DNA of 64,000 nucleotides from Paraspadella gotoi (Eukaryota; Animalia; Chaetognatha): positions 26,515,343-26,579,342 of the forward strand of contig CM119267.1 in the NCBI GenBank assembly GCA_051294375.1. The letters are read 5' to 3'. The translations under genes and the position numbers were made by a program. Below are positions 29,429 to 64,000 of the stretch, piece by piece; positions within the stretch are counted from its first letter, which is position 1, and every line of letters begins with the position of its first letter. Under the pieces are notes generated by a model. That model saw only the letters and a list, made by a program, of their open reading frames with translations. It was not told the origin of the DNA and did not search any database.

Positions 29429-31503
29429 TAGTCGGATCTGCTTATCAGCAGATCCCCACTCTATAATTCACTTTGTAAAAAAAACGATGTCTGTCTGTCG
29501 TCCGTCCGTCAGTCCGTCCGTCCGTCCCACCTTAGCAAAAAACACCAATTACTCGTGATTGGATGGATGAATTGGAATGAAATTTTGTGTGTGGGTAGGG
29601 AAGTGTGTGAATGAGCTGTATATGAAGTTTTCGATGGAATCGTGCGAGTGGAAATGAGTTTAAATGGAAAAAATTTAAAAAATTAATGTCACTATTTGAA
29701 CACCAATTACTCAAGAGTGGATGGGGCGATTGACTTGAAATTTTGTATTTGGCTAGGAAATTGTGTGATTTAGCTGGAAATCAAGTTTCGATGGAATCGT
29801 TTGAGTGGAAATGAGTTTAAATGGAAAAAAACAAAAAAACCTGTTTCACTAATTGATTATGCTTCTTTTTCCTTTTATATTAAATGTAAATGAAGGATGT
29901 ATTAATAAATCAAATAATTAATCAGTAAAATTAATCAATTAGTCAATTAATTAATCAATAATTAATTAGTCAATCCGTCCATCTTAGCAAAAGCTCCAAT
30001 AACTCGTGATTGGCTGGTTGGATTGGAATGAAATTTTGTGTGTGGGTAGGACAGTGTGAGATGAAGCGGGATATAAAGTTTCGATGGAATCATGTGAGTG
30101 GAAATGAGTTTAAGTGGAAAAAACATAAGTCGCATTTACTAATATATTTTTACTTATTTTAACCAATAAGTACTCTAATTAATCATAATTGGATGGATAG
30201 ATTGAGTTCAAATTTTGTGTGTGGTTAGGAAAGTGTGTGTGACGAAGATTGATACAAAATTTCGGTGGAAACGTACGAGTGGAAATGAGTTTAAATAAAA
30301 AATATGAGTCACATTTACTTGAATTTTAATACAAATAAAAATAAAATCGTTAACAACCTATGATTGGAAAAATTTCAATTGAAAACCATTGTAACCTTTT
30401 TTGTCTTTCTTTTTATTTTATTTTATTTTTTAATTATATATATTTTTTTTTCAGGCGCTGCCTTTTCTGAATCGTTTAAAAACGAGTTCAGTCTCTCTCA
30501 GTCTCTGTCTGTCTCTCTCTGTGTGCGTCTGTCTCTCTCTGTACGATCTCTTGCGTGATCGTTCGTTTTTTAAAAATTCTGATTATTTTTTTCTTTCTAA
30601 AAAAAATATATATTTGATCAGGCGCTGCCTTTTCGAATCGTTTAAAAACGAGTTCAGGCTCTCTCTCTCTCTCTCCCTCTGTCTCCTCCGTCTCCCCCCC
30701 CCCTCTCTATCCTCTCTCTCTTTTTTTTTACAAAAAAAAAAAAATTATTCACTTTTTTTTTACCACCGTCACAAGGCGACGAGTAAACGAGTTCCGGCTC
30801 TCTCTCTCTCTCTATCTCTCTCTGTCTCTCTCTCTTTTTTTTTTGCAAAAAAAAAATTATTCACTTTTTTTTTACCACCGTCACAAGGCGACGAGTAAAC
30901 GAGTTCCGGCTCTCTCTCTCTATCTTTCTCTCTATCTGTCTCTTTCTCTCTCTCTCTCACTCTCTCTCTATCTCTTTTTTTTTACAAAAATAATTTTTTA
31001 GTCACTTTTTTTCACCACCGTCACTAGGCGACAAGTAAACGATTAAACGAGTTCCGGCTCTCTTTCTCTCAAATAAAATTGCTATTACAACAAATTTTTT
31101 GTTTCATCTCTAAACTATTTTTAAATAGCAAAAGAAAGTCAAAATACAATTACTCACTTATCATTAAAATATTTAACAAGAATTATATTTTGAGTATACA
31201 ACTTTTTATGAGCTATCTGAATCTGGTCTTAAAATTTAAAAATTATAAAAAAAATTTGGCCTTTCCTATTTATAAATAAATATTAAAAAAAATAATTATT
31301 TGGGTATAGAAAGTATACTTCAAAATGTATAAATTTTTGTTTGAGCATATAATCATTCTAAATTTTTGACTCACCCCATTGAGTGGGGCTACCCTTAGTT
31401 AGGATCACAAATTGAAAGAATTATCGATATCGTCATTTATCATCTGATTAGCTGATAACCTCTTAATTAATCGTAGGCAGATCCGACATTGTTTGCTCAA
31501 ATT
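29429..31503 (+). mobile_element. DINE-1/HINE-like (Helentron-associated) non-autonomous element
   Basis: 5' hairpin/subTIR agtcggatctgcttatcagcagatcc, (GTCC)n microsatellite, ~150-bp internal tandem units, and 3' subTIR gcagatccgac followed by hairpin gtttgctcaaa. Confidence 0.75.
30745..31065 (+). repeat. Three tandem units of roughly 110-130 bp (accaccgtcacaaggcgacgagtaaacgagttccggc + CT microsatellite)
   Basis: Seen directly. Confidence 0.85.
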
Positions 31504-32937: not shown

Positions 32938-33016
32938 AATTCTAATATTTACAGTAAAAACGTTTGAAAGAAGAAAAAAAACATTATTTAACGAGAATAA
33001 ATATGTTTGTTTCCAG

Positions 33017-34137
33017 CGTCCACAGCAAAGAACCGATTTATGCAATCGGAGCCGTGGAAAGAATCGTTGATCGTCTCCTCATCGTGCGAAGCTTCAAAGA
33101 GCTTGAGGCGGCGCTTGATGTAGATTCAGTGCTCCTGCTGGAGAACCGGACGCCCATCGGCAAAATCCACGAGACCTTCGGCCCCGTGCCACAGCCCTTC
33201 TACAGCCTCCGCTTCAACTCTCCCGATGAAATCAAAACCAAGGGGATAATTATCGGTGAGCTTTAATTCATCGAAACTTAATCTTATACTTGGAAATAGC
33301 CAATTAATTGCACGATATCGTGTCTTCCTCCTCGCAGGGACTCTCGCTTACTTCGCCCCTCGTCGTTCAGAACTGACAAGCTTCGTCTTTCTTCGCCAAC
33401 TCAACTACATGCGAGGAAGCGACGCCTCGTGGACGGACAACAACGAGCCTCCGCTGGAGTGGCTCGACTATAGCGATGACGAAAAGGAACGGATGGCTCG
33501 ACAGGAGCTTCGGGCGAAGATCGAGGAAGCAGAGGGTGGGGAGGTCGGTAGGAGGAAAGAGAGAAGACGCGCGATCGAGAAACAGGGAGCTAAGTTAAGA
33601 AAAATAGAGACGAAACAATTCCGTTGGACTGAAAGACGCAGTAGTTGTTCTAATCTCGCCAACGAACACCACAACAACAACAGTTATTCGGCAGCCAACG
33701 CCGCCGCCGTCACCGCAGACGGAAGTTCATGGTCTCGGGTCTCATCTACCGCAGCCTCGACTTCCGCTTCTGCAGCATCGGTTTCTTTGGCTCTGTTCTC
33801 CGCCTCCAATCCTTTCGCCAGTTATTTCGCTGATTGCGGGACATCCTCTCTTTTCCGTCCCACTCTACGCCCTCCTCCTCCTCCACCACCTGCACCGCCT
33901 CTCTCTTATCATTATCCTAACTTTTCTGCAACAATTGGTCTCACTGATTCTACCCAACAAAATCGACCCCATTTCACTCCGCCGCGACTCCATCCCACTC
34001 CACCCTTACTCTCTCGTCCACCCGAATCCGAGTTAGGAGGCCATTTCAAAGTCGAAACCTCCGAAGAGACGATTTTCTCTCCTTCGAAGAAACTTGACGC
34101 TGAGGAGATGGAATCGACGAAGCCGCCCGGAACCTAA
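33017..34137 (+). CDS. NAF1: H/ACA RNP assembly factor NAF1, last two exons (33017-33255, 33338-34137); 5' exons not found
   Basis: Gar1/Naf1 domain (IGKIHETFGPVPQPFYSLRFNS), GSDASW..NEPP...DYSDDEKE motif and Pro-rich tail; 82-nt GT-AG intron is phase-consistent. Confidence 0.93.
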
Positions 34138-40400: not shown

Positions 40401-43400
40401 GACGCCATAAATGACGCCACAAACCCAGTCAAGCCTGATAACGCCAACTACTCCATGGATAATGTTGACATGGTCCTTGAGACCGTGATGGTGTCAACCA
40501 GAAGTCGGAAGCGCTCCGTTGCGTCGATAAAATGTGACCCTGACAACGAGAAAGAGGACGAAGAATGGCGTCCGATTTTTAGTGAGGTGGAAGATAAAGA
40601 CGAAGAAAAGGAAGAAGAAGAAGAAGAAGAGGAGGAAGATAGAGAAGAGACAACGGAAAGAGAGAAGAGGAAAAAAAAACGGAGAGAAAGAACTCGGAAG
40701 AAGATGATTCAAGGCAGCATCGGGAAAAGACCCGCATTCGACGACAACGATATTTGGGACGACGACGACGACGACCCACCGGCTCAGAAAATTGTCCGCC
40801 TCACTCGCGTCGTCGACGACGGCGACGTCCGCGTCTTCGAGCGAAGAATCGCGGCCTTTGAGTTGTCGACCCGAGCCAAGGCGACCGGGGATGGTCTCAA
40901 GGATGTCTGCCTTTCGGGGGAGGGGGGAGACCTCACCATTCCCGGAGTCATTTGGTCGAAGCTCTATTCTTACCAGCGAACGGGCGTTCGCTGGCTCTGG
41001 GAATTGCACCAGCAGGTTCCCCTTTTTTATCTTTCATTTTCTATGTTGTTTTTGTCTCAAAGAAGTCGGTTTCCCTCAGCAATGTGGAGGAATCGTCGGC
41101 GACGAGATGGGTCTCGGCAAGACGATCCAAGTCATCGCTTTTCTCGCTGGACTTAGAGCATCTCGACTCCGCGCCCTCGGATTTCCCTTCATTGGTCTCG
41201 GCCCTGTTCTCGTCGTCGCCCCCGCCACCGTCCTCCTCCAGTGGGTCAATGAATTTCACACCTGGTTCCCTTTAATCCGTGTCGCCATTTTGCACGACAC
41301 GGGATCCTTTAAGGGTAAGAAAAGAATGAAAGGATATAATTGGGGATGAGCATCGTTTCTAAACCATTTAGTATTTTTCAATGAATTTGGTACCGATCGA
41401 TAGGAAATTTAAAATATTATCTACATGCAAAATTTCATTAAAATCGGATAATCCGTTCAAAAGTTATGGCAAAAGCAATATTGTTTTGTCATTCTGATTT
41501 AGAGATATTTGGTTATTGTTATGCCTTAAATTTCCTTTATATGAAAAAAATAATAGGTTTAAAAGATAGCTCTTGATCTCTAGTAGTAAATTGAGTTTGA
41601 ATATAACTTTTTTTAATGAACAAGTTTAACCCAGATCAATTACAATGACGATGGTCAGAAATTTTGTTACCGTTTCAAGCTACTTTTAGCCTGATTTTTT
41701 ACATATTTTGATTATCTTTGCGATCTTACTGATGAAAAACAGTCATGGTAAAGAGAGCCTATGTTCGTTCGAATATAAGACATATTATGGTGGACTAAAA
41801 TTCACCAACCGTTCATCAGCGGCCATTGGTGCCGGAGGCCAGACATTCGCCTCCCAACCCAAAGGTCCGGGGTTCTAGCCCGGTAGTCGCCTAGCAGTTT
41901 AGAGGGACGGGGCGCTTAACCCGCCTGTAACTCGGTGTTACAGCCTGATCCGAAGCTCGGACTGCTTATATTGAACGGTTCTGTCATTAACATATATCAA
42001 TAATCACTGTCTCTTCAATATGTTAGTAATCAGACAGAGCAAAAATTTTGGTCACAAGATAAAAAATTTTGCATGAAAATAGCGTGAATAAGTTTTTCCA
42101 CGAGACTGTGCACCGCGACATAAACAGCTTAATTTCTTCCGACTTGCCTACCTGAGAGGGAAATTCAATCCGTTAATGTCGTCCTCTTGTACCGACTTGT
42201 TCCCGCTTGAAGTTGTAGTTTTGACTTTTTCTTTGATGTTATTTCAAGGAATAGAACAGACTTGTTTGTAGAGTAAGTTACTAAGGCAGTTATTAGCAGC
42301 AGGCTGTTGTATAGTTTTATCGAAGGTTGGATTAAAAGTTCTTAGGTCGGGCTCACCAGTTGTAGATAGTGAACCCCCTGGGACCGACGAGGTAAAAAGG
42401 CAACTAAACTAACAGGAAACATGTCTCTTCCACATTGACTAAAAACGTCTGCTTTGTTACCAAAGATCATCAAGATATTATTTTTTCGAGTTTGGGAGGT
42501 TTCTCGGTAAAAGTGCCAGGGGCAAAGGCTACAAGTATGCATACTTTTTTTCAACTTGCATACTATTTTTTTCAACTTGCATACTTTAAAAAAAGTTTGC
42601 ATACTTTAAAAAAAGTATTTATTCTTTAAAAAAAGTATTCATACTTTAAAAAAAGTATTCATACTTTTTTCAAAGTATGAAGGTTGGAAAAAAAAAGTAT
42701 ACATACTTTAAAAAAAGTATGCATACTTTTTTTTTCAACATGCATACTACTTTTCAACTTGCATACTACTTTTTTCAACTTGCATACTTTTTATCGAGCC
42801 AGGACGGGCTTCGCCTGGTCCTGGTTCTATAATGTTAAGGCCAGGCTTCTTTGTGACGTCGTCGTCGTCGGCGTCACGCTGTTTTTATATAAAAACTACT
42901 ACGCTTTTATAGGTTTGGCTGTGACTTACCTTTTTTTTTTAAATAAAAATTATTATGAATTATGATAAAGTTTTACAAAAGTGTGCGATCATAGTAAGTT
43001 AAAAATTTAGATATGGCTTCTCATCTTGAAATAGCTTTGATATTTTTTTTTTTAATACATTTAAGTATTTTTTGTTTGAATTTCCACTTCATTTTGATTT
43101 ACAATATGCAATTTGAGATTTAAGTACTCATTATAATATCCAAATTAGTATCTAATTTACATATTGCAGTATATAATATTGAAGATGAAATTCATAATTT
43201 TTTTTTAAATCTATGATAAAAATGGGAAATCAAAAGACCTTTTTAATGAGAAGCTATATCTTAATTTTAATACAAATAAAAATAAAATCGTTAACAACCT
43301 ATGATTGGAAAAATTTCCAATTGTAAACCATTGTAACCTTTTTTGTCTTTCTTTTATTTATTTTTTAAATATATATATATTTTTTTCAGGCGCTGCCTTT

Positions 43401-46400
43401 TCTGAATCGTTTAAAAACGAGTTCAGTCACTCTCAGTTTCTCTCAGTCTCTCTCTCTCAATTATAAAAGATTATTACACTATTATTTTTATTTTATCTTT
43501 CAGTGTTCCGAATTACCCCTCTCTACCCTACTATTTAACTTAACCAGGAACGAAATCTGACCTTATTTGGGACATCGTCGAAGCCAAAGGAGTTTTATTG
43601 ACGTCCTATTCTTCAGTCGTTGCCAACGCTGAAGAGCTGGCCGGTAAGTATGAGAAAACAAGTTTGAGCAAACAATGTCGGATCTGCCTACGATAATTAA
43701 GTGGTAATAAGCTAACTTGGTCAACTTGTATAATTTAATCAATTTGCATTATTTGGTCAACTGACATAATTTTTTCAGCTGGCATAATTTGGTCATCTGA
43801 CATAATTAGGTCAACTGACATAATTTGTTCAACTGACTTAATTTGTTCAACTGATATAATTTGTTTAACTGACATAATTTGGTCAAATGACATAATTTGG
43901 TCAACTGACATAATTTGGTCAACTGACTTAATTTGTTCAACTGACTTAATTTGTTCAACTGACTTAATTTGTTCAACTGACTTAATTTGTTCAACTGACT
44001 TAATTTGTTCAACTGACATAATTTGGTCAATTGGCATAATTTTGTTAATTGGCATAACTTTATTAACTGGCATAATTTGGTCAACTGGCATTAATTTTGT
44101 AGACATAATTTTCCATTGGTCAACATTAGGTCCTGACATAATTTGGTCAACTGGACATAAATTGGTCAACTGGCATAATTTTGGTCAACTGGCATAATTT
44201 GGTCAACTGGCATAATTTGGTCAACTGGCATAATTTGGTCAACTGGCATAATTGGTCAACTGGCATAATTTGGGTCAACTGGCATAATTTGGTCAACTGG
44301 CATAATTTGGTCAACTGGCATTAATTTGGTCAACTGGCATAATTGGTCAACTGCATAATTTGGTCAACTGGCATAATTGGTCAACTGGCATAATTTGGTC
44401 AACTGGCATTAATTTGGTCAACTGGCAATAATTTGGTCAACTGGCATAATTTGGTCAACTGGCATAATTTGGTCAACTGGCATAATTTGGTCAACTGGCA
44501 TAATTTGGTCAACTGGCATAATTTGGTCAACTGCATAATTTGGTCAACTGGCATAATTTGGTCAACTGGCATAATTGGTCAACTGCATAATTTGGTCAAC
44601 TGGCATTCACTGGCATAATTTGGTCAACTGGCATAAATTGGTCAACTGGCATAATTTTGTCAATGGCATATTTTTGTCAATGGAATAATTTGGTCAATCA
44701 ATCAATCAGAGAGAGATAGAGAGAAAGAAACTTTAAAAAACTCTTTTCCACTTCTACGATTCCATCAACAAATTTATATCCAGCTTTATCACATACTTTC
44801 CTACCCACACACAAAATTCAATTTCAATTTATCTATCCAATTTTTAATAAACATAATAATTATGAGTAAATTTAAGTAAAAATATTGTAAATGTGACTTT
44901 TGTTTTTTCCATTTCAACTCATTTCCACTCGCACGATTCCATCGAAACTTAATATCCAGCTCAATCACACACTTTCCTACCCACACACAAAATTTCATAC
45001 TAATCCATCCATCTAATCACGATTAATTGGAGTTTTTTGCTAAGGGAGGGTGGACAGACAGACGTCCGGACAGACATCTTTTTTTTTTTGCATAATTTAT
45101 CATAATTTGAGGTTCTGATATGATAATAATGATTTACCGACAATATTTTGGGGTGGGACCGACGGACCGACAAAGTGAATTATAGAGTCAGAATCTGCTG
45201 ATCCGACTAAAAATGGGTCAGCCATGTGACTCAAGTAGAGATTCCTTAACCGTTAAAAACTCACCGTAAATAACGGTGAAAATTTTTTTAACTTAACCGT
45301 TATTTTTTTATTTTAACTGTTAAATTTTATTTTTTGTAATTTAGATATTTTGGTAAAAAATATTTTGTTTTTAGAGAAATTTTTCTTAAAACAAAGTGAA
45401 GCGCTTAAATCACTCACTTTTTTTAGTCGGATCTGCTTATCAGCAGATCCCGACTCTATAATTTCATCTTGTCGGTCCGTCGGTCCGTCCCCTCAATATT
45501 GTCGGGAACACACTTATACCATGTCAGAACATCGAATTATGATAAATTATGCAAAAAAAACGATGTCCGTCCGTCCGTCCGTTCCGTCCGTCCCACCTTA
45601 GCAAAAAACTCCAATTACTCGTGATTGGATGGATGGATTGGTATGAAATTTTGTGTGTGGGTAGGAAACTGTGTGATTGAGATGATATGAAGTTTCGAGA
45701 GGAATCGTGCGAGTGGAAATTGTTAAATGGAAAAAACAAAAAAATATATTTCACTATTTGAAACGCCAATTGCTCATGAGTGGATAGGGCAATTGACTTG
45801 AAATTTTGTATGATGGTAGTGGAAAAGTGATGTGATTGAGCTGGATATAAAGTTTCGATGGAATTGTGCGAGTGGAAATGAGTTAAAATTGAAAAAAACG
45901 AAAGTCATATTTTACTTTAAGTATTTTTACTTAATAACTATTACATCTAATTATATGTTTATTAAAAATTGGATAAGATAAATCTAATAAGTTGTAAAGT
46001 TATTTGTGTGTGGGTAGGAAAGTATGTGATAAAGCTGGATATAATTTTTTGATGGAATCGTAGGAGTGGAAAAGAGTTTCAAATTAGAAAACCAAAAGAC
46101 ACATTTATTTGAATTTTTTAAAGTTTCTCTCTCTTCTATCTCTCTCTGATTGATTGATTGATTGACCAATTTATGCCAATTGACAAAAATATGCGCAGTT
46201 GACCAAATTATGCCAGCCCTTGACCAAATTATGCCTGTTGACCAAAATTATGCCAATTGTGACCAATTTTACCAAATTATGCCATATTGACCAAATTATG
46301 CGGTTGACCAAATTATCTAATTGATCAAATTGTCAGTTGACACTATATCAGTGCAATGTGATTGACCAAGTTAGCTTATTACCACTTAATTATCGATTAA

Positions 46401-49400
46401 CCTGGAATTTGTATGTGAATAGAAAAGTGTGTGTATTGAACAGGAAACCAAGTTTCGATGGAATCTTTTGAGTAGAAATGAGTTTAAATGGAAAAAACAA
46501 AACAAAACCTGTTTCACTAATTGATTATGTTCTTTTTCCTTTTATATTAAATGATATGCAGGATGTATTAATTAAATCTAAAATAATTAATCAGTTAATT
46601 AATCAATTAGTCAAAATAATAATCACTCCATTTAAGCTATAGTACTCGAATATTCGGTCTCTTAGCAAAAAGCTCCAGATAACTCGTGATTGGCTGTTGG
46701 ATTGGAATGAAATTTTTGTGTGTGGGTAGGAATGTGGGTGATAAAGCTGGATATAAAGTTTCGACGGAATCGTGTGAGTGGAAATGAGTTTCAGTGGAAA
46801 AAACATAAGTCGCATTTACTAAAATATTTTTACTATTTTAACCAATAAGTACTCTAATTAATCATAATTGGATGGATAGATTGAGTTCAAATTTTTTGTG
46901 TGGGTAGAAAAATGTGTAACGATGCTTGTATAAAAGTTTTGGTGGAAACGTACGAGTGGAAATGTTTAAATGAAAAAAATATGAGTCACATTTACTTGAA
47001 TCTTTTTACTTAATTAGATTGAGATGAAATTTTGTGAGCGGGTAGAGAGAGAGAGAGCAGAAAAATGAGCATAAGGATCGTCGCAATTGCAAAAGAGAGA
47101 GGTGAGAGAGAGAGCAGAAAAATGAGCATAAGGATCATTGCAATTGCAAAGAGAGAAGAGAAAGAGAGAGAGTCCGAAATAAAAATTAGCGAATAAAAAA
47201 GTTGTTATTTTACTCACTGAATAAAAATACTTAAAATACTTACAAAATACATAAATTGATAAAATTATTATTCGCATAACATTGTTTAATCACATGCAAT
47301 ATATCTAGTAAGGCGGGCCAAAATTGAACACTTTATAACTTCTTAGTTCTCTCAAAAAAATTTCTTTTTTCCTTCTACTACTAAATCGATTTTCAATGTA
47401 ACTTTTTGAATTAGTTCATTGGGTTGTTGCACTGAAGCTTTTAAATATTTATTAATATATAACAAATGACAAAAAAAATTTTAAAATAATATGAATTCTT
47501 CTATTTCGAACACCCCCCACATTTAGCCTTTTGTCTCCCCAAAAGGCGAGGACACCGCGCTGTGACCAGACATTGTGGGAAAAGTAAACAAAAAGTTCAA
47601 ACGAAAAAATACTCTCCCCGGCCCTCAGCGCAGCAGAGTCTGCTTGCAGGGCCAGTCCCGATTCGCTGCATCACTCTCGTCGAAGTGCTGCTGATAGCCG
47701 GGGGACGCGTCACTTCTTTTTCCCATTGCGCTCTCTATGTGATCAGTCGGCTTCGCCTTATTTTTTAGCGCTTTTTCGATTATATATCGGGACTTCCTTC
47801 GTATTATTGCTTTCGAGTGGACGAATTTTGAACTTCACGCTCGTCTCTTTTGGTTTATTCGACCGATCCGTAAGAATTTTCGCGGCGATTTAGGTCTCGA
47901 AAAAGGATTCGCGCGATCGCAGTTCCGACGGAAATCTTCGTTTCGACCATAGCGGTTTGAGGGAGCCTGAGAATTCACTTGGGCGCGACCCTGCGTCGCC
48001 CAGATGCCTTTCGCGCCCCGGTTCGGTGTTTCTCTCCACTCCCCTCCTCTGCTTTAGGCGCTGTCTTCCGTTACCTCGGTTACGGCGCCGTTCGGGCCGC
48101 GGCGCGCGGGCGCCGCAACCCCGGCACCAGGGGTGTCTGGTTCGGGAGGGTGGACAGCCTACACGCAGCCCTGGGAGGCCCGTGCGCGAATCGCGCTGGA
48201 TGCACTGGAAGTATTTTGACACGGCGACGCCCTTCTAACGGCGCTTTTCAAGGGAAATGCGGGATTTCGCTTCGCAGGAGATGGAAAGGATTTCGCCGGT
48301 GAGCGTTAATGTGCGGATGTTCTTTTTATTCGAAAGTCTTTTTGCAAATTCTTTATTTGCCCCTCCATCACAATTTTTGCTTTTCTCTTTTCTTTCTTTC
48401 TTTCGTTTTTTATTTTTTTATATTTCCCTTGTTCACACGGCCGCGTTTTTTCTCGTTACTGAGGCTAATGTAGGGGCGGGCGTTTCGAATTAGAATATCT
48501 GAATTCTGAATCCGGAATTATGATTCTTATCGATAACTCCCCCCACATTTCCCCGGCCGCCGCCCCTTTCGCCTCCGGCGTGCGTGTTGCGCCCCGGGTG
48601 TCGTTCGGTTTCCGTTTTTTTTTCTGTGTGGTTGAGTTTTGCAAATACTTTTTCTTTTTGCTGAATATTTGTGCTTACTTAGAGAGATAAAAAGGGGGGC
48701 GGGTGGGCTCTTCCTCGATTTGACGTATCGTAATCTAATTCTCGTTTTATTTTGTCATTCACGTTCATGTATGCTTAAACATCGAACGGACGACTTCACT
48801 TCGCTTCCCTTCGCCGCTGGTTCCTTGACCGAGCTTCCTTCGCTATCCAGAGAGCTCAGTCCCGCCCACCGGGCTCCTGCCTCGGCCTCTAAAGACGCAA
48901 TCGCTGTCGCCTTCACCGCCTGGACGGCACACGGTCGCGCACCCAGCTCCAGGGACTGGACACACCCTATCGGGAGATGGAGAGGTGAGGTCCGGACCCA
49001 GACGTCGATCGAGGGCCTTTCTACGCTTGCAAGCCCGCCGCCAAGGGAAGCGGCGTTCGCCGTCTGATAGGAGTTTCGAAGCAATGGCGATTCGCGTCGT
49101 CACGTCTCGGAGTCAGGGGGAGTTTGCGACGAAGCTGGAGTCTCGCACAACCTCCGCAACCTTCGCGCCTTCGTCGTTGGGTGGACCCACGCCTCACCGT
49201 GGCGTTCGTTTCCACTTCCAGATCACGACGCGCGTGTTGATGCCCGCCTTCCGAAAGCGGCTATCTACACCGTTATCCCTGTCTACCGTCCAAATCATTT
49301 ACGGCACGATGCAGGAGGCCGCGCGTCGGCGTCAGCTGCCGGCTGCGTTTTTGTCGCGACGCAGCTGACGTGACCTTGTCGGACGCCATCAAGGCGGTTA

Positions 49401-52400
49401 TTTCAGCGGATCAGGTGGTGGAGCGCATTCCCCTCGCTGGCTTCGCGCCCTACGCGATATTTGCGTCCATCCAGGCAAACCGCGTTCAATCGCTGGCTTT
49501 TGGAAGTTCGACGTCGGCTTTTCGTCGAAGCGCGCCGTCCATCTGGCGTGGCTGGACGGCTGCAGGACGCCGCTCCCACCGAGAGGTTGTTTTTCTTCGG
49601 GGAAACGCTCGATCAGAGTTTCGTCAGCGGTCAACGCCGCCTTAATCCGATCCGCCGCACGCCCTCGCTTCTTGATAACGTCGTCAAGGTTCAAAGCGTC
49701 GAAGCCAACCTTCAAGCCGCGAAGAGGCGGCAAGAAGCCCTACTCGTTTCAGAGTCCGGGAAACCGGGAGGACAGGGGAGCCAGCCTGCGAAATGACGGT
49801 TTCTCCGGCCGAGTCAGTTTCGCCCCGTCCTCGTCCGGCGCAGGCCCTCTTCAAGATCGGGATTCGTCAGGTCGGCCGACCTCTCCAATTTTGCACGAAC
49901 ATTTCGGGCTTCGTAAGATCGCCCGATGCGGAGCGATCCCAACCCGGGCGTCGCTCGTCCTGTCGCGACGCGACGGCCATCCGGCTGGAGAGGACGACGC
50001 GGTCGAAGCGGAATCTCCGCCGCCTTGGAGAAGGGGCGGAATCGAAAGGGAGGTAGAGGCCTCTCCGGGTTTTTACCCAGGTTCTTCCTTGTACCGAAGA
50101 AGATGGAGGGTGGAGGCCCATTCCTCAACCTAAGCGTTCTCATACGCGCTTTCCTCACCTCCGTGGTATCCAGTAAGTATCTATTTCAAGGAAGACTGGT
50201 TTCGACGCAATTGCGCCTCAACTCGACCTACGCGACGCTTTATCTCCCCCTTCCGCGCCTTTCACGAGGACCGCATCGAAAGTTTTGTCCGATTCATTTG
50301 GAAGAGGTCGGATCTTCCAGTACAAGTTCTTCCCTCGGTTTGCGACGGTCCGTGGCCTTCATGGATAGACAACGCCGCCCCGCTAGTTTCAATGGCTGAG
50401 GCAGAGCAGGCATTCGTGTCTCTTCGTTCTATAGTCGACGACATCCTCATCCTGGCTTCATCGAAGGCAGGAGGTGTCACCAAGCGACGTGCAAGGCGGT
50501 CCAACGATGCTCTTGGAGCGGGTTTCATCTCCACGGAGAAGTCCGAGCCCGTGACTCCCCGTATCAGTCCTTCGATTTCCTCGGTTTTCATTGGGCAGCG
50601 GTCAGCTTCCATCAGATTTCTCGCTTCCGCCGCCCAAGTTGGAATCGATCCGGAAGTTTAGGCGATCGTCACTCCTCTTCGTCGGTCTTCGTTCCGCCGG
50701 CGCGTTTAGGTCTTCAGTTTCCGACACGCCACGGCGGCCAACGTCGCTCTATCTCTCTCTCCTTGCCCACTCCGCCCGGATCTATTACTCTTTTTTTCGC
50801 GGTTACGGATCGCATTCTGTAAGGTATGCTCGCGTGTACCTCTCCGTCAGTCATACATTCAGGAACGTCTATCTCTTCTACCACTCCGAGAAGGATCTCG
50901 ATCGCCCAATCGCTGTTAGATCTCATCTCTGAGGAGCTAGATGGTGTCATCGTCGTCTTCGCCTGTGAGGACTGCGTCGCGCCGGTGGACGATCTGCCTC
51001 CCAGTAGGATTGCGCCCACGTAGTTGACGATGCAGGATTCGCCCTCCGCTCAGACGCAGGCGTTGGGGCGATCCTTCTCCAGGGAAGTAAGCTCACCCAG
51101 GACCTGGATGGCTGCCCAGATGTCCATCACCACATATGCCGAATGTGAAGCGAGTTCATGGCCTTGTTGAAGATTCTTCCTCTCTTCGATTTACACCATC
51201 CGTATCAAGACCCGGCTCCCACACTTGACACGTTCTGCGACCTTGCTGAGAGAAGCAGATACGAATACTACCACTTGGCTGGTGTAAGCGGCGCGAACCG
51301 ACCCAGTCCCTCCATCTATACCGCCTCTAGCCGGAGCTCTGCCACGTCTGGTCGTGCGAAGGTGAGTCGCTTGCTCGTTTCTCTCGGCGCCCCAAACCAG
51401 TGTTGGCAGTTTGTGCCCGTTCGCGGGAGCTACACTACGACGGTTGTTCCGGGCGCAGGTCTCTGCTGACTCGCCCCACATTCCCTGCCGGGATTCCGGC
51501 CTATCACCGGGCAGTCACGACTGTCGTCAGAGTGCAGAGAAACTTCATCCTCTGCATCGCATGGTAATGACAGGATGCGGCGCTTCCGCGTTCGAGGGAC
51601 GCCTAGCTTGCCGGACTCGATTGGCATCTCCTTCCACTCGCGCATCTCTTCCGTCAGCATCTGCCGAGACCCCTTACGCGCACTTCTCCTCCATCCGATC
51701 TTTTTGCGCCGACGAAGGACTCGACGCGAGGGTGCGGCGTTTCCTGTCTCTTGGAAAAGGCGGAGGCGCCAACGGAGGTGTGTGACGGCCCTCGCCCAGA
51801 TTTGGATCTTTTCGATCGGGCCATTTCTCTTTCCTCCAACCACCTCCTCCCTCCCGAGCGTCATCCTGGGAAGCAGTGCGAGGAGTCGTCGGGGATCTTC
51901 CTTCTGATCGCCCTTTCTGGCCACCAGAGAGTTGGGTTCCCGTCGTTGGTTTGAACCTGAAGATCTCTGGAGGCTGCGACCGCCTTCCGGTCCCGATCGA
52001 GGGCAGGCCCGTCATCGACCTCTCGAAGCACGGATCTCCGCCCCATCCTCTGCCGCAAGGACCGATTGTTCTACAGCTGGTCGTTCTTGGTCAGATTTAC
52101 GGCGGGAACAGCTTATCGTCTGCGAACGAACCTCCGACGACCCTGCAGCGAACTCCCGGCCTTCGACCATTCATTCGCCGAATCATGCTGGAGGACGGCT
52201 CGACGCTGAGATCGTTACCGCTTCGAGCCTGGACTCTCCTTGCGCTCTTTCCCTTCAATTGAAGAGAAGTTCGAGGAACTTGAGCTTCGTCTCTGAAGGA
52301 TGTATCGGGATGAGATACTCGTGGAGTCGCCCATCTCGTTGGGTAGTGGCTTTGTTCGTTAACAGCACGTGCTGAACCTTCACCGCTTCAGGCGAGAATT

Positions 52401-57100: not shown

Positions 57101-60100
57101 TTCAAAATCATATTTTTTTAATTTTAAAAACAGTTTTGGATTCGCCGGAAAAAACTGAAAAACTTTTGTAAAATATGTTACATGATATTTTTAGGTTAAA
57201 GCTGCGAAACATGTCTGTCTTATAATAATAAAATCGTTGTTTAAACAATCTAAAACGTCCTCTATCATCCAAATACAACGAAACGAAAGGAAATAACGAT
57301 GACCAATAAATGTTAAAATTTCAAAACAGTTTTTTCTAAGATTTTTTGGCAGATTTGTATACGTCATAAAAAGTGGATGAAAAGAAATATAACTCTTTTT
57401 GAAAAATTCCTTCATTAAGTGGGTCAAAAATTAGAAAAAGCTATATTTTAAGCTGAAAATTAACTTTTAGTCGGATCTGCTTTCAGCAGATCCCGACTCT
57501 ATAATTTCCGATGCTCCTCGTGAATCGGGAGATGGAGATAAGCATCTCGAAGGTCTATCGAGGCACCCCAATCGCCTCGTCGAAACATCCTTCGTACGTC
57601 CGGGGCTCCTTCCATCCGGAAATAAGGCGGCGAAAGGAACCGAGAGTTGAGCTTCTTTAAGTTCAAAATCGGGCGCCAGCCTCCATCCTTCTTCGGAACG
57701 AGGAAGATCTTGGAAAAGAAACCCGGAGAAGCCGGGACTTCTTCGATGGCGTTCTTCTCCAATGCCGCCGCGATCTCCGCGTCGACCAAGGCGTCTCGGT
57801 CTCCAAAGGATGGCGTCTCGTCCGAGGGAAGAGGGAGGCGTGTAGGAATCTGCTTCGCCCCCTCGAGGCGGAACCCCGAGATGTTGTCGAGAATGGGCGA
57901 CGTCTCGCCAACGAGCGTCGTCCAAAAGGGTCGAAAGAGACGAAGCCGACCTCCGACGGGGACTTCCGGAAGAAGCGCCGGCGTGGAAAGGTCCGCGTCG
58001 AGACTCGAGTCCATGGGCGGATCCAGGCCTAAAACCGGGACGGTCGGACGAGGCGGTGACTGCGAGGGAGGCGTTTCGAGTCATTCGCCGGGACGCGATC
58101 CCGGCCCTTCCCGTTTCCCGACTTCTTGCGGGGAGCAGACTTCTTGGTCCACTTGCGCTTGAAGGAAGGCTTCGAGCGGAAACGAGGTCGCTTTGTCGCA
58201 GCGGGTTTTGCGCGTGCGACGTTTCGTAGAAGCGTCGAGTGAGCGCCGACGCCACCTGCGCTTCCTGATCGCCAAAAAAGGAAGAGGCGGTGGCGCGGAG
58301 CGAAGAGAGCGTGGCGCGGAGATCCTGCGGCGCACAGCGAGAACTTGGCGGCGGATCTCGCCGACAGAATGGTTGAGAGACGCCGCCTGAATAAGCGCCG
58401 CGTCGCGAAGCGGGGCGGCAAGGGCGTTCCACACTCGCGATGACCTCATCTCTGGGCGAGCCGGAACGGAGAGCCTCCTTGATTCCGCGCAGCTCATCGG
58501 CAACTGTAAGGATGGCATGCGCGGGTAGCGCCGTTCTCCTGCATCGCACGAGAAAGGGAGCGGAGAGTAGCCGCGTTATCCCCTTGGAAAACGCCGACTC
58601 GAATTGAGCGGAGAGGCACGTGTCCGGCGTCGGAGCGGTGAACTCGGCGGAGAAGCGACGTCGATCCAGTGGCGTATTCTGCCGGCCGCTGGGCGTCCCA
58701 GCGCGTTCCAGTTGGCCGTGAGGATCCCCTTCCCCAACGCAGCGAAGGGAACCCACATGTCACGAAACCATGGCGATGGAACCGGCGCCGACCTGCTCGT
58801 GGGCAGGAAGTCGTCGAAACCGCCGACGTCGTCGTCCGAAGACGAACTCTCCCTCCTCCGCCGAATCGAGAGAGTACTCGGCGTCCGGATCCGGCACGTG
58901 TGGGATCGATGACGCTTGGGTAGAGGCGAGACGTGCGACGGTCCGAGGCAGGCGCCCGATCTGAGAGGGCCGCCTACTGGAGTCAGAACAGCATGGAAGG
59001 AAATCGAGACGAATCAAATGAGCGCAAGCGTAGTGGAGAGTAAAACCGGACCCATATAGATCGTCACATGTAAAAAAATGTAAGCGGTAAACAAATTAGC
59101 GCGGAGATTAAACGGAAAAACTCCCGAACCCCCCCCTCCCTTCTCCCCAACCCCTTTCCCTAAGCCACGCCAAAGCCACGAAAACATGGTAGAAGACAAA
59201 CAAGGGTGGATGGTGGGATCGTGGCGAGGCGGACCGATATAGAATTAATATTCCATAAAGGAATTAAAAATTCTCATATCGGTCCGCCTCGCCACGAAAT
59301 GCCCCATGCCAAGAGGCGTAGGAAAGCGGTTATTTCAACAAAATATTTCGATCGAATAGACGAAATAAAAATTCTAAAATTCCAAAATTCGAAAACTTCG
59401 AAAAAAGAAGAAAGAAATAAAGGAGAAACAAAAGAGGAGAGCGAGGCGTTTGAAAAACGAGCTAAAAAAACCCACTACGCCACCTGGCGGGAAAAACTCA
59501 CCGCTCCAAAGCGTCGAAACGCCGCTGAGACTCGCGGCGAAGATCGTCGAAATCCTTCCTAAAGCTGTTCTTTAGTGACGAAACCATCGTCGTAAGGACA
59601 GACTCCAGTCCTCTGGTCTCGTCGCCGGCAGTGGGGACGACCAGACCGGCGCCCACTTGGTCCGAGCGCAGCGTGAGAGGGCGCCTCGGACGAAGCCCCA
59701 CCGCTCGGCCGGGCAACGGAACTGTCGGTTGGTAACGGCCAGTCCCCAAAACGACGGAATCGGGCTGCCGAAAACCGCGTAAGAGGGGAGAATGCGCGGC
59801 GGTGGGGAGGTGCGGGCGGGGGGCAAGACCGCTCGGTCTCTCTTGGACCTCTCAACACACCCCGAGGGATCTCAAACCCTCTCTACGTTTAGAGACTTGT
59901 CCGAACGTTTTCGGCTGTCAGACTGCTTGTCCGAACGTTCATCTCTGCTTGAAGACATAGTATGAGCGGATTTCGAACGTAGATATACAGAGAAATCGTG
60001 AAAAAGTCAAGAAAAAACGCGAAATCTGAAAGGTGATACCAAACTAGTTGAGCGCGAAAAAAGAATTGAGGATCTGTTCCGTATGGGAGGGAGCCGGCTT

Positions 60101-61406
60101 CGTGGATGCCGGGCTCCCATTGGTCGGGCCGGTCAAGTGACGGCTTCCCCCTGGATTTTCTTTTTTTCATCTTTCGATGTTATTTTTTTCGTTTTTCTGA
60201 CTCTGATAACGCGCGATCTATCGACTAGCGCGAACAAAAGGGCATTTCGTGGCGAGGCGGACCGATATAGAATTAATATTCCATAAAGGAATTAAAAATT
60301 CACTTTGTCGGTCCGCCCCTCAATCTTGTCGGGCATCACTTATATCATCTCAGAACATCGAATTATGATAAATTATGCGAAAAAAAGGATGTCTGTCCTT
60401 CGTCCATCCGTCCCAACTGAACAAAAATCTCCAATTACTCAACAGTCGCAATTGGCATGGATGGATTGGAATGAAATGAAATTTTGTGTGTGGGTAGAAA
60501 TGTGTGTGATTAAACTGGAAATCAAGTTTCGAAGGAATCGTTTGAGTGGAAATGAGTTTAAATGGAAAAAACAAAGAACCTAATTGATTATGCTTCTTTT
60601 TCTTTTTATTTTAAATGTAAATGCAAGATGTATTAATTAATCAAATAATTAATTAGTTAATCAATTAGTCAATTAATCAATAATTAATTAATCAGTTAAT
60701 TAAACAAAACAAACATTTTGGATCAAATTAATTAATTAATTGCATAATTAAAGAAATAATTAACTTGAATAAATTGATTATTAATTAATTAAATAATTAA
60801 TTATTTATTAATTTATTAATTACCGATAATGATCGTGGGCAGATCCGACATTGTTTGCTCAAACTTGTTATATATTAAACCCACTTAATGAAAGAATTTT
60901 TAAAAATGATTTATATTTTCTTTTATCAACTTTTGACGAGGAATTCAAATCTGCAATCAAAATTAAAAAAAGCTTATTTTGAAATTTTTCGATTTTATAA
61001 GGATAGTACTATATATAAATATAGCCTACTGCGAAAAATTAAAAAAAAAATTAATTTTTTTTTACAAATTAATGTTCACTGATGGTATGTTGTTCATAAT
61101 TAACTTTTAGAATTTTCGTATGTAACTTTAACTACGCCTTACTACGTATCAACACTTCGCTTGAAACCAAACTCTTTGTTTTAAAGTTATCAAATGCTTC
61201 ACTAAGAAACGATGTATAAACGATTGTACATAATATTTATTTGATATAATTTGTACTTAGGTCATCGAGTGCTGATTTTTTCCCAGTCTCGCGAGATGCT
61301 CAACGTCTTAGAAAAGTTCGTCCTGGACGCTGACTACTCCTACCTTCGCCTCGACGGCGCCACCGGCGTCGGCGTCCGTCAAAATCTCATCAATCGCTTT
61401 AACCAG
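34427..61406 (+). CDS. ERCC6: ERCC6/CSB SNF2-family ATPase; exons 34427(or 34382)-34581, 39814-40227, 40325-41015, 41080-41314, 43548-43643, 55011-55271, 55341-55486, 55557-55680, 55763-55882, 61261-61406; continues beyond the window
   Basis: CSB-type motifs [108 protein letters not shown]. All junctions are GT-AG and phase-compatible. Exon 1 is the least certain. Confidence 0.95.
34848..36947 (+). repeat. Two ~165-bp direct repeats (34848-35012, 36783-36947) around two unassigned overlapping ORFs
   Basis: gcagaggaggatttagcctg...cccctcaag occurs twice. Confidence 0.7.
37912..38088 (+). mobile_element. Penelope-type solo pLTR with inverted partial copy
   Basis: Perfect 53-bp inverted repeat, hammerhead core at the tip, tail, and 12-bp TSD tatatctttaac. 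Confidence 0.85.
37961..38004 (+). ncRNA. Minimal type I hammerhead ribozyme
   Basis: gucg-CUGAAGA-a-[gacucuu aaua aagaguu]-GAAAC-uu-GUC^cgac; predicted cleavage after 38000. Confidence 0.75.
38476..39454. mobile_element. hAT-like MITE
   Basis: Termini c(t)GGGTTGGCA...TGCCAACCCTG with gggttttt subterminal repeats; no clear TSD. Confidence 0.65.
39586..39666 (-). ncRNA. Twister ribozyme, type P5 permutation (family 2)
   Basis: guuggc-aaa-gcga-GACC-guccuaggg-U^AA-ccgc-GCC-[agugac uggaggc gucacu]-gaggg-UCGGAAGC-ccuc-aaa-gccaac. Confidence 0.75.
41788..41992 (+). mobile_element. ~205-bp repeat: terminal hairpin, subTIRs, tRNA-like head and twister (copy 1)
   Basis: Near-identical to 63714-63920; A-box-like tggtgccggagg, B-box-like ggttctagccc, inverted aaccgttca/tgaacggtt. 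Confidence 0.85.
41893..41966 (+). ncRNA. Twister ribozyme, type P5 permutation (family 1, copy 1)
   Basis: agcaguu-ua-gagg-GACG-gggcgcu-U^AA-ccc-GCC-[uguaac ucggu guuaca]-gc-cuga-UCCGAAGC-ucg-gacugcu; predicted cleavage at 41917/41918. Confidence 0.7.
42535..42790. repeat. ~19-21-bp minisatellite (ttttttcaacttgcatac / aaaaaagtattcatacttt)
   Basis: Seen directly. Confidence 0.85.
43657..45212 (-). mobile_element. DINE-1/HINE-like element carrying an 18-bp minisatellite
   Basis: Both family termini are present in reverse orientation; it begins 13 nt after the ERCC6 exon 5 donor. Confidence 0.75.
43745..44697. repeat. 18-bp minisatellite (ggcataatttggtcaact)n, about 50 units
   Basis: Seen directly; a sub-block of variant units (gacttaatttgttcaact) is present. 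Confidence 0.95.
45421..46395 (+). mobile_element. DINE-1/HINE-like element head-to-head with the previous copy; a family 3' end occurs at 54292-54328
   Basis: 5' hairpin, (GTCC)n, ~150-bp units and a short inverted copy of the 18-bp array. Confidence 0.7.
47499..53428 (+). mobile_element. Full-length DIRS1-like retrotransposon (element A), frameshifted, in ERCC6 intron 5
   Basis: ~215-bp imperfect ITRs (47499-47712 / ~53174-53390) plus a right extension to ~53428; ICR at 48462-48549; RT motifs [28 protein letters not shown] (~50020-50130) followed by RNase H/YR-like remnants. Confidence 0.9.
56152..57301 (-). mobile_element. Penelope-like insertion with inverted pLTRs and mutated hammerhead
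   Basis: 14-bp TSD accaataaatgtta; ~60-bp inverted repeat (~56150-56208 / ~57206-57265); minus-strand cCGAUGAaggcuu...aagccGAAACAUGUC. Confidence 0.75.
57465..60869 (+). mobile_element. DINE-1/HINE-like element split by DIRS element B
   Basis: actctataatt|cactttg is contiguous in the uninterrupted copy near 63010; 3' signature ends at 60869. Confidence 0.8.
57507..60300 (-). mobile_element. 3'-truncated DIRS1-like retrotransposon (element B): terminus, ICR, gag, first third of RT
   Basis: ORF 57499..58014: [10 protein letters not shown]...[26 protein letters not shown]...[14 protein letters not shown]; junction-like repeat at 59219-59304. Confidence 0.92.
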
Positions 61407-62976: not shown

Positions 62977-63480
62977 TTTTAGTCGGATCTGCTTATCAGC
63001 AGATCCTGACTCTATAATTCACTTTGTTGGTCCGTCGGTCCGCCCCCTCAATATTGTTGGGCACTAACTTATATCATGTCAGAACATCGAATTATGATAA
63101 ATTATGCAAAAAAAATGATGTCCGTCCGTCTGTCTGTCCGTCCCTCCGTCCGTCCGTCCCACCTTAGCAAAAAACACCAATTACTCGTGATTGTATGGAT
63201 GGATTTGAATGAAATTTTGTGTTTGGGTAGGGAAGGTGTGTGATTGAGCTGGATATGAAGTTTCGATGAAAAATGTGAAAAATTTGAATACTACCAAAAG
63301 TGTTCCGAATTACCCCGCACTACCCTAATTTTCTTTGATAGCTCACGGTTCTTTTTATAGGAGGAAAAAGTTGAATATAAATTTAAAATTAATTATTACA
63401 TATTAAAATTAATTAATTAATTAATCGATTAATTAATTAATTATTGTAGGCAGATCCGACATTGTTTGCTCAAACTTGTT
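62977..63480 (+). mobile_element. Short DINE-1/HINE-like copy
   Basis: Both termini and the (GTCC)n tract are present. Confidence 0.75.
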
Positions 63481-63713
63481 TTTTAAATACGAGTTTTCAG
63501 CAGATTTGATAACTTTTGTACTAATTTTGCAAAATATAGACTCAATTCAAACATCTTTATGTGAAACGATATCAGTAAACCGAGAGCTTTAATTTAAGAC
63601 CACTCCCAACTTTCTCCGACTTTTGGTTAAAAAGTTATTAATCAAAATATATTATTTTTTCTTTAAAAAAGTAATGAAATGGTGAGTATTATTGAGAATA
63701 TAATAAGCCTTTG

Positions 63714-63920
63714 TGGTGGACTAAAATCCACCAACCGTTCATCAGCGGCCATTGGTGCCGGAGGCAAGTCATTCGCCTCCCAACCCAAAGGTCCGGGGTT
63801 CTAGCCCGGTGGTTGTCTGGCAGTTAAGAGGGACGGGGCGCTTAACCCGCCTGTAACTCGGTGTTACAGCCTGATCCGAAGCTCAGGGACTGCTTATATT
63901 GAACGGTTCTGTCACTAACA
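63714..63920 (+). mobile_element. ~205-bp hairpin/subTIR/tRNA-head/twister repeat (copy 2)
   Basis: Perfect hairpin tggtgga-ctaaaa-tccacca; same boundaries as copy 1. Confidence 0.85.
63819..63894 (+). ncRNA. Twister ribozyme, type P5 permutation (family 1, copy 2)
   Basis: ggcaguu-aa-gagg-GACG-gggcgcu-U^AA-ccc-GCC-[uguaac ucggu guuaca]-g-ccuga-UCCGAAGC-ucagg-gacugcu; predicted cleavage at 63843/63844. Confidence 0.75.
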
Positions 63921-64000
63921 CAACAATTATCATTGTCTCTTCATTGTCTCTTCATTCATCAATTTAAAAAACATAAAAAACGCACCCAGCAAAAACCCAC

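Follow-up and report, generated by a model that had tools for sequence, protein, structure and literature searches.

What kind of mobile element joins a tRNA-like unit to a self-cleaving ribozyme motif, and how does it copy itself? The question arises from a 64,000-nt stretch of the Paraspadella gotoi genome (Chaetognatha; GenBank assembly GCA_051294375.1, contig CM119267.1, positions 26,515,343 to 26,579,342 of the forward strand; hereafter the window), in which a tRNA-like unit directly precedes a motif resembling a circularly permuted twister. An earlier prediction made from the letters alone placed this pair at 41818-41966 and proposed a mobile, self-transcribing small RNA with the tRNA-like part as its 5′ head; the sequence of both parts is as it described. 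We find that the pair lies inside a 232-bp repeat (41786..42017, + strand, TATGG...CTTCA), which is likely the solo long terminal repeat (LTR) of a Helenus-type terminal-repeat retrotransposon in miniature (TRIM), an element with a tRNA-like sequence in its LTR, and in which the twister may set the ends of a circular RNA. The cited papers are represented here by the portions available to us.

Ends, copies and insertion sites

Sequence comparison inside the window revealed a second copy at 63712..63943 (+, TGTGG...CTTCA), 95% identical to copy 1 across 41806-41982. Similarity between the copies begins 33 nt before the tRNA-like part and stops 51 nt past the twister; the unit extends beyond the originally predicted limits by these lengths. 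Among the 11 sequencing runs listed, nine contain the element's sequence, all from organism A and from three studies, and the same study's organisms B and C contain almost none of its words, which is not proof of absence. Contig records aligned to the element number 12,014 in run X1, 1,791 in X5, 816 in X9, and 856 in the DNA run X8; the last two are likely a single data set, as their numbers are nearly equal, and the identity of X9 as RNA is a guess only. Summed contig depth was not taken as copy number.

In these public contigs, loose ends stack at both edges of the element. At the left edge (41785/41786) there are at least 105+39 in X1, at least 39+12 in X5, and at least 23+7+8 in X8, and similar counts are found at the right edge (42017/42018), with at least 66+28 in X1, followed by at least 36 and at least 18+8. 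The ends are sharp, with more than 140 distinct left junctions. Because the loose ends stack at these fixed edges and agreement beyond them is low (0.39-0.53), the element is inserted at well over a hundred unrelated sites with both ends fixed. The majority 5′ end is TATGG, and the majority 3′ end is CTCTTCA, followed by flank. The predicted mobility and multiple copies are thus borne out, and the tRNA-like part is not the 5′ head that a layout like that of a short interspersed nuclear element (SINE) or of the Schistosoma repeat SMalpha would have.

An empty site was found for copy 1. One contig in each of four out of four runs carries a joint from 41781 to 42018 that skips 236 positions, with four letters fitting both sides. 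ATAT occurs once at this empty site and twice at the filled site (41782..41785 and 42018..42021), amounting to a 4-bp target duplication. The empty-site contig has a depth of 91 in X5, which suggests that the flank is itself a small repeat, so that the joint might come from a paralogue or from an allele. ATAT is also the majority flank on the element's left side, both in X7 (95 contigs) and in X8 (34 contigs), and the largest class of X7 (30 contigs) has it on the right. The element has no terminal inverted repeat; its termini are TA...CA in most copies and TG...CA in copy 2, which are LTR-type ends.

These features bear on a first alternative, namely that the element is a monomer of a non-LTR retrozyme borne by Penelope-like elements (PLEs). 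Tandem masters would be transcribed from the tRNA-like promoter, cut by the twister, circularized, and inserted by a PLE reverse transcriptase and GIY-YIG nuclease, as for SMalpha but with a twister. The 232-nt length lies within the 170-400 nt of such elements, and SMalpha-type repeats also join a tRNA-like part to a ribozyme (PMC7229834, PMC6765202, PMC4918200). Monomer-rich families are known as well, many of them resembling the pseudo-LTRs (pLTRs) of PLEs (bioRxiv 10.64898/2026.07.22.740005). [quoted passage not shown]

The leader upstream of the tRNA-like part can be read as a circular permutation, and two features of copy 2 would suit target-primed insertion: an 11-bp duplication of its end lies directly downstream (63944-63954), and among the joints listed one contig of depth 12 jumps back from 63930 to 63723. 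Both window copies, however, are monomers, the duplication is exactly 4 bp at the one proven site, and the element ends in CA. Target-primed copying in non-LTR insertion is expected to leave one ragged end, and we reason that this should hold for a circle or multimer, whereas here both ends are sharp at similar counts. Within the window, a Pfam scan of 83 reading frames found no PLE domain and no integrase, GIY-YIG, or tyrosine recombinase. We regard a Penelope-borne origin as unlikely.

A second alternative is that the element is a nonautonomous DNA element, Helentron/HINE-like or Crypton-like, with a captured tRNA-twister cassette and a ribozyme irrelevant to mobility. Copies contain a 9-bp long-range inverted repeat, its 5′ arm at 41807..41815 (+) pairing with its 3′ arm at 41972..41980 (+). 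On the minus strand it reads as a subterminal inverted repeat of 9 bp, and after it comes a terminal hairpin that lies 3 nt from the end, an arrangement like that of HINEs; copy 2 lies between TT and TT. One repeat arm, however, is 37 nt from its end, and the proven site of copy 1 has a 4-bp duplication, whereas to our knowledge Helentrons and HINEs make no target duplication. TATGG is also the terminus of most CryptonS elements, but these are known, in the part of the source available, from oomycetes and diatoms and carry TATGG at both termini, while our element has it at one end only (PMC3212892). A DNA element would further leave the upkeep of the catalytic core unexplained, and we consider this origin highly improbable.

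The tRNA-like unit and the twister motif

The tRNA-like unit spans 41819..41891 (+) and includes an A-box-like motif (41827-41838), a B box (41871-41881), and GGTTC. Within the window, the combined A-box and B-box pattern at tRNA spacing matches the two copies and nothing else, and the same is true of the B box alone. ARAGORN at its default threshold finds no tRNA gene at the element, and Rfam gives no tRNA match at E<=10 for either copy; at -ps85, ARAGORN calls tRNA-Gly(CCC) at 41819-41891 and 63745-63817, with four of its six calls in the window falling outside both copies, probably by chance. The Gly(CCC) call agrees with the Gly-CCC-like loop originally predicted, but the isotype does not follow from it. 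We take the loop to resemble tRNA-Val as much as tRNA-Gly. Because of this resemblance, an anticodon stem with three of five pairs, and the presence of the same cgcctccca loop in fish Helenus LTRs (PMC10886601, sequences viewed), the unit cannot be assigned to an isotype. Most copies have C at the A14 position of the A box (41833), with a minority C>A variant that gives the canonical A14 at about 3-9% of depth. The box pattern suggests that the unit likely acts as an RNA polymerase III (Pol III) promoter. Neither copy contains a run of four T; the first one downstream lies at 42046..42049 (+), outside the element and 29 nt past copy 1.

Ahead of this unit stands a conserved 33-nt leader (41786..41818, +), which is U3-like and contains a hairpin at 41788-41807. 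The leader bears most directly on a third alternative, in which a tRNA-headed, SINE-like Pol III RNA spreads from single copies and its twister releases a 99-nt tRNA-like RNA and a 3′ fragment. The A and B boxes at tRNA spacing, the adjoining twister, and the first T-run just downstream of the element would all fit. A SINE is nevertheless very unlikely because a transcript from the internal tRNA promoter of a single unit cannot copy the 33 conserved bases upstream of it. The majority 3′ end also lacks a poly(A) or repeat tail, and a cut in mid-element would split the template; among the matches listed, a single contig (X8) ends near the cut site. Spread from a tRNA-headed transcript, as the original prediction had it, is therefore the part of its mobility claim that is not supported.

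The twister motif occupies 41893..41966 (+). We mapped it by hand on the printed consensus of Rfam family RF02684 and arrived at a type-P5 arrangement with P3 and P5 helices and a predicted cut at U41917/A41918. The 5′ and 3′ ends of the motif meet in P5 (41893-98/41961-66, 6 bp). L1 contains GACGG (41906-10), in which GA (41906-07) carries the general base, and UAA (41917-19) at the cut. P3 (41925-31/41937-43) has 7 bp rather than the 6 first counted, and P4 is placed around UCCGAAGC (41949-56). The pseudoknot T1 consists of C41951-G41909 and G41952-C41908 plus C41950-G41910 and is changed on both sides relative to the Rfam consensus (CG/CG instead of CC/GG); T2 is intact, pairing GC (41923-24) with GC (41955-56). 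The GA, UAA, GC, and UCCNAAGC loop of the RF02684 consensus are all kept. The P5-permuted assignment and its predicted cut site thus hold up, but the motif is not complete as first described: P1 is a single G-U pair on a 4-nt loop, short of at least 2 bp, P2 consists of two Watson-Crick pairs plus A.C on a 3-nt strand (the usual P2 has 3-4 bp), and P4, which has its full 5 bp in copy 2, has 4 bp with a U.G in copy 1, which lacks two P4 bases carried by copy 2 and by 26-73% of depth.

A descriptor composed after the motif had been seen matches the window twice, at the two copies. Seven core matches, one with P5 and none with both P3 and P5, turned up when the window was put through 150 block-wise dinucleotide shuffles. 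The common non-CpG differences between copies (41887, 41890, 41893, 41932, 41933) fall in loops or linkers or preserve pairing. Between 41820 and 41983, many C>T and G>A differences lie at CpG sites, at 3-11% of depth in X1 and with the T1 pair included, which suggests methylation-driven decay of inserted copies.

In the RF02684 model P1 is long, and helices P3 and P5 are absent. Our element shares with RF02684 members and with the twister T-variants of the Schistosoma mansoni element Perere-3 the GA/UAA core, T1, T2, and L4, as well as a link to animal retroelements (PMC8501958). The Perere-3 variants, as described in the available text, are type P1 and lie at the 5′ end of an RTE long interspersed nuclear element (LINE) (PMC8501958); ours, in contrast, has a P5 permutation, helices P3 and P5, and next to no P1, sits in the middle of a noncoding repeat, and scores below Rfam detection.

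Other candidate motifs were rejected. A second register suggested by MAFFT (GAGGG, with UAA at 41928-30) fails P2, T1, and T2, and a hammerhead on the minus strand (CUGAUGA, 41812-41818) lacks matching stems and GAAA; scanning the window for hammerhead cores yielded no match. We also scanned other sequence collections for the same twister variant. A metagenome scan returned seven loci, all without stems and without Rfam ribozyme matches, which we take as chance, and a viral scan returned none. Viral scans for 3-nt and 4-nt P2 strands returned 3, 14, 12, and 3 loci, in which Rfam gave three twister matches in three of three tested and seven in 20 of the remaining 29. Three natural P5 twisters among these loci (L011, L022, and L037) have a 3-nt P2 strand with a 3-bp P2 and exceed the Rfam threshold. 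Two viral contigs carry twister-like P1 motifs with T1 as CA/UG (L028:61-110 and L025:61-107); L028, whose CUGA/UCAG P4 is identical to that of our element, goes undetected by Rfam at E<=0.1. Adjacent type-P5 twisters, L008 and L011, lie about 125 nt apart on one IMG/VR phage contig, one with a 4-bp and the other with a 3-bp P2.

Proposed replication cycle and predicted folding

On balance, and with a modest lean only, we favor the hypothesis that a Helenus-type TRIM left the element as a solo LTR and that the twister cuts both LTRs of such a TRIM, so that a unit-length RNA circularizes as in plant LTR retrozymes. In a master with two LTRs, transcription by Pol III would begin close to the 5′ LTR's tRNA-like unit and encounter no T-run inside the LTR. 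Cleavage by the twister at the position of U41917/A41918 would take place in both LTRs, and the double cut would release a unit-length RNA with a 5′-OH and a 2′,3′-cyclic phosphate and no terminal repeat. P5, P2, and the pseudoknots, together with the 9-bp helix between leader and tail, could hold the ends of this RNA together until a host RtcB-type ligase joined them. A Ty3/Gypsy reverse transcriptase and integrase would then copy the circle and insert the product with a 4-bp duplication, and solo LTRs such as copy 1 could arise through LTR-LTR recombination or from short cDNAs. A transcribed solo copy would yield a 99-nt 5′ piece with a cyclic phosphate and a 3′ piece reaching the flanking T-run (42046 here). 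The tRNA-like product of about 100 nt in the original prediction is thus to be expected from a solo copy, but as a by-product, since the replicative RNA would be the piece between the two cuts.

The available part of the paper on Helenus reports LTRs with a tRNA-like sequence inside, animal families with 4-bp duplications, a PBS shared with Gypsy elements, and solo LTRs, some (fungal) families of which fragments and solo LTRs are all that is left, and consensus sequences of several wasp LTRs that start with TA and end with CA (PMC10886601). Our element shares with Helenus (TRIMp3) an A/B-box tRNA-like sequence in a short noncoding unit with a leader before it, and with animal Helenus families the 4-bp duplication found at copy 1, the TA/TG...CA ends, the solo units, and a length within the LTR range (PMC10886601). 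It differs in carrying a twister and in that an internal region, PBS, and PPT were not seen at the element. In the main text of that paper ribozymes occur only in the title of a reference, and searches of its sequence file for the twister loop motif found no twister, although line breaks could hide a match.

Two elements of Synergus wasps in the same sequence file (DataS1, PMC10886601), Helenus-2_SyJa and Helenus-2_SyUm, have LTRs of 277 bp, a 4-bp target site duplication, and a tRNA-Trp PBS. By eye, both LTRs contain a type-III hammerhead directly after the tRNA-like part, unmentioned in the main text, with a GUC cut triplet, a 7-bp stem I, CUGAUGA, a 4-bp stem II, GAAAC, a 6-bp stem III, and 12-nt complementary loops. 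Judged by this motif, the two elements would count as LTR retrozymes of animals. Their LTRs begin with tgtggggacta, a possibly fortuitous resemblance to the start of copy 2. It is mainly because these LTRs share the order of leader, tRNA-like part, ribozyme, and tail within a known two-LTR element that we prefer to read our repeat as an LTR.

The proposed circle is modeled on plant LTR retrozymes. There, according to the available text, the ribozyme cuts both LTRs, and the product, which lacks the R repeat, is circularized and copied by Gypsy enzymes into cDNAs that are solo, monomeric, or multimeric (PMC4918200); in Nicotiana benthamiana, nine full-length elements are found among hundreds of loci (PMC9695139). 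Our element resembles these in having a ribozyme in an LTR-like unit, a 4-bp AT-rich duplication (at copy 1), many solo units, and long self-pairing around the ribozyme. It differs in occurring in an animal, in having a twister rather than a type-III hammerhead and an internal tRNA-type promoter, and in its length (232 bp vs about 350 bp), and whereas plant LTR retrozymes form circular RNA, a circle here would be a prediction of the model.

Would the twister fold and cut? In copy 2, P3, P4, and P5 each pair with a probability of about 0.99 once the motif is complete. An assay of 1948 twisters derived from type P1 found that imperfections in P1, P2, and most of P4 are tolerated, that P1 is dispensable, and that catalytic residues and pseudoknots are the sensitive positions, as reported in the text available (PMC11662667); both are intact in our element. 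Another literature report describes inefficient cleavage by a twister without P1. Judging from motif and fold, we consider it very probable that the twister of this family cleaves. Copy 1 is probably a weakened copy that may misfold. The 9-bp helix between leader and tail pairs with a probability of 0.97 in both copies, and 9 bp were reached by 23 of 5000 shuffles. This helix can form only in RNA that contains the leader, that is, in the 3′ LTR or the circle, and in the doubly cut monomer it would clamp both ends along with P5. A role of the leader as a switch that would activate the twister in the 3′ LTR alone was dropped, as the folding test proved fragile.

The same predictions bear on a fourth alternative, in which a Helenus-type LTR makes no circles and the twister is only a 3′-end former that replaces the Pol III terminator, or a slow or idle passenger; in one variant the cut would occur mainly in the 3′ LTR and leave a 99-nt R repeat. 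The LTR lacks a T-run, unlike most Helenus LTRs viewed, which by eye have a T-rich stretch after the tRNA-like part, but fish Helenus LTRs have no T-run either, and inspection by eye reveals no ribozyme in them (PMC10886601). For longer transcripts beginning at the tRNA or slightly ahead of it, the probability of P5 in copy 2 falls to 0.23-0.76, compared with 0.99 when the leader is included, and a decoy hairpin (GG/CC plus CGGG/CCCG) exceeds the native nested fold of copy 2 in stability by 7.7 kcal/mol, with pseudoknots ignored; the same program misfolds three of five natural P5 twisters. However, P5 reaches 0.98-1.0 when the motif has just been made, regardless of start, and stays at 0.85-0.99 for a start 8 nt upstream, and the pairing that competes with it uses bases private to copy 2. 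Because P5 forms once the motif is transcribed, whatever the start, the ribozyme of the 5′ LTR should be able to cut first. A cycle without circles seems to us distinctly unlikely.

Several observations weigh against a circularizing solo LTR. Apart from ATAT, the flank classes are GTTT, AAGA, ATTG, or GTAC, and the left subsets are not a simple mirror of the right; copy 2 has no 4-bp duplication (CCTT on the left, TTGT or TTCA on the right), so one of the two window copies fits. The majority 5′ end is TA rather than TG. Neither the window nor the contig rows listed showed a two-LTR copy, an internal region, a PBS, or a PPT, and membership in Helenus is for this reason not established; among the joints listed, the sole hint of such a copy is the jump back from 63930 to 63723, which a tandem copy would produce as well. 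Most copies are without A14 in the A box, and TRGCY, found in most Helenus elements, is missing. At the suggested check against a twister model, Rfam finds no twister at E<=10 in either copy, the threshold of the RF02684 covariance model not being reached, and at the gathering score it reports nothing in the window. The absence of the two P4 bases from copy 1 allows an alternative hairpin over L4 to arise at 0.3-0.7 in most contexts, and native P4 drops to about 0.01. To these come the decoy hairpin of copy 2 and the inverted repeat of leader and tail, which also fits a subterminal repeat at the DNA level.

More tentatively, as a possibility that we lean slightly away from, animals may have a class of Pol III-driven LTR retrozymes, in which a tRNA-derived promoter and an interchangeable ribozyme in a TRIM LTR produce RNA circles that are copied by Gypsy machinery. 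Reviews, as available, divide retrozymes into plant elements with LTRs and type-III hammerheads and animal elements without LTRs and with type-I hammerheads (PMC7761336). If our hypothesis is true, the element would be the first twister-based retrozyme, it would overturn the view that LTRs, PBS, and PPT are missing from metazoan retrozymes, and it would unite three separately described lines, namely Helenus, LTR retrozymes, and the twister. The ribozyme slot would be interchangeable, holding a P5 twister here and a type-III hammerhead in the Synergus Helenus-2 LTRs. Twisters, so far linked to LINE 5′ ends (PMC8501958, in the part available), would gain a second defined job, and the cycle would offer a possible answer to how a Pol III TRIM sets its RNA ends without a terminator. 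Since Rfam misses this motif, P5 twisters with almost no P1 are probably undercounted in animal genomes.

All parts of the element are already known; the combination appears not to be. In the literature searched, we found no paper with a twister in an LTR, a TRIM, or an element with a tRNA promoter, in line with the original prediction, which knew of no described twister-P5 counterpart; subscription papers, supplements of twister surveys, Dfam, and Repbase fall outside this search and may list the family or the ribozyme.

Host gene and neighboring repeats

The element lies in a gene for an ERCC6/CSB-like protein (window 40806-61406, +) with repeat-filled introns of up to about 13.7 kb. Upstream exons at 40806..41322 (+) were identified by Pfam (SNF2-rel_dom), homologues, and tblastn, and most of the best named matches of the protein, at about 80-83%, are in mites, molluscs, and hexapods. 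Copy 1 stands in sense orientation between these exons and an exon at about 54992, and copy 2, also in sense orientation, lies past the last ERCC6/CSB-like exon aligned in the window. Given this orientation, the twisters of both copies could cut the pre-mRNA.

Upstream of the ERCC6-like frame, the segment 39455-39790 is GC-rich and hairpin-rich (z -2.43, 1/100 shuffles), occurs once in the window, and by eye shares short words with 42330-42540. Decayed reverse-transcriptase fragments are present at 57499-58080 (-), with a weak RVT_1 match, and at about 49917-50661 (+); from their motifs we take them to be DIRS-like. A family of dispersed repeats that contain GTCC microsatellites and internal units of 158 bp, presumably DINE-1/HINE-like, occupies 29489-30350, 44740-47010, 60440-60600, and 62995-63300. 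The window also contains an exon with a Gar1/Naf1 domain (32958-33263, +) and an 18-bp minisatellite of about 56 copies (43713-44697).

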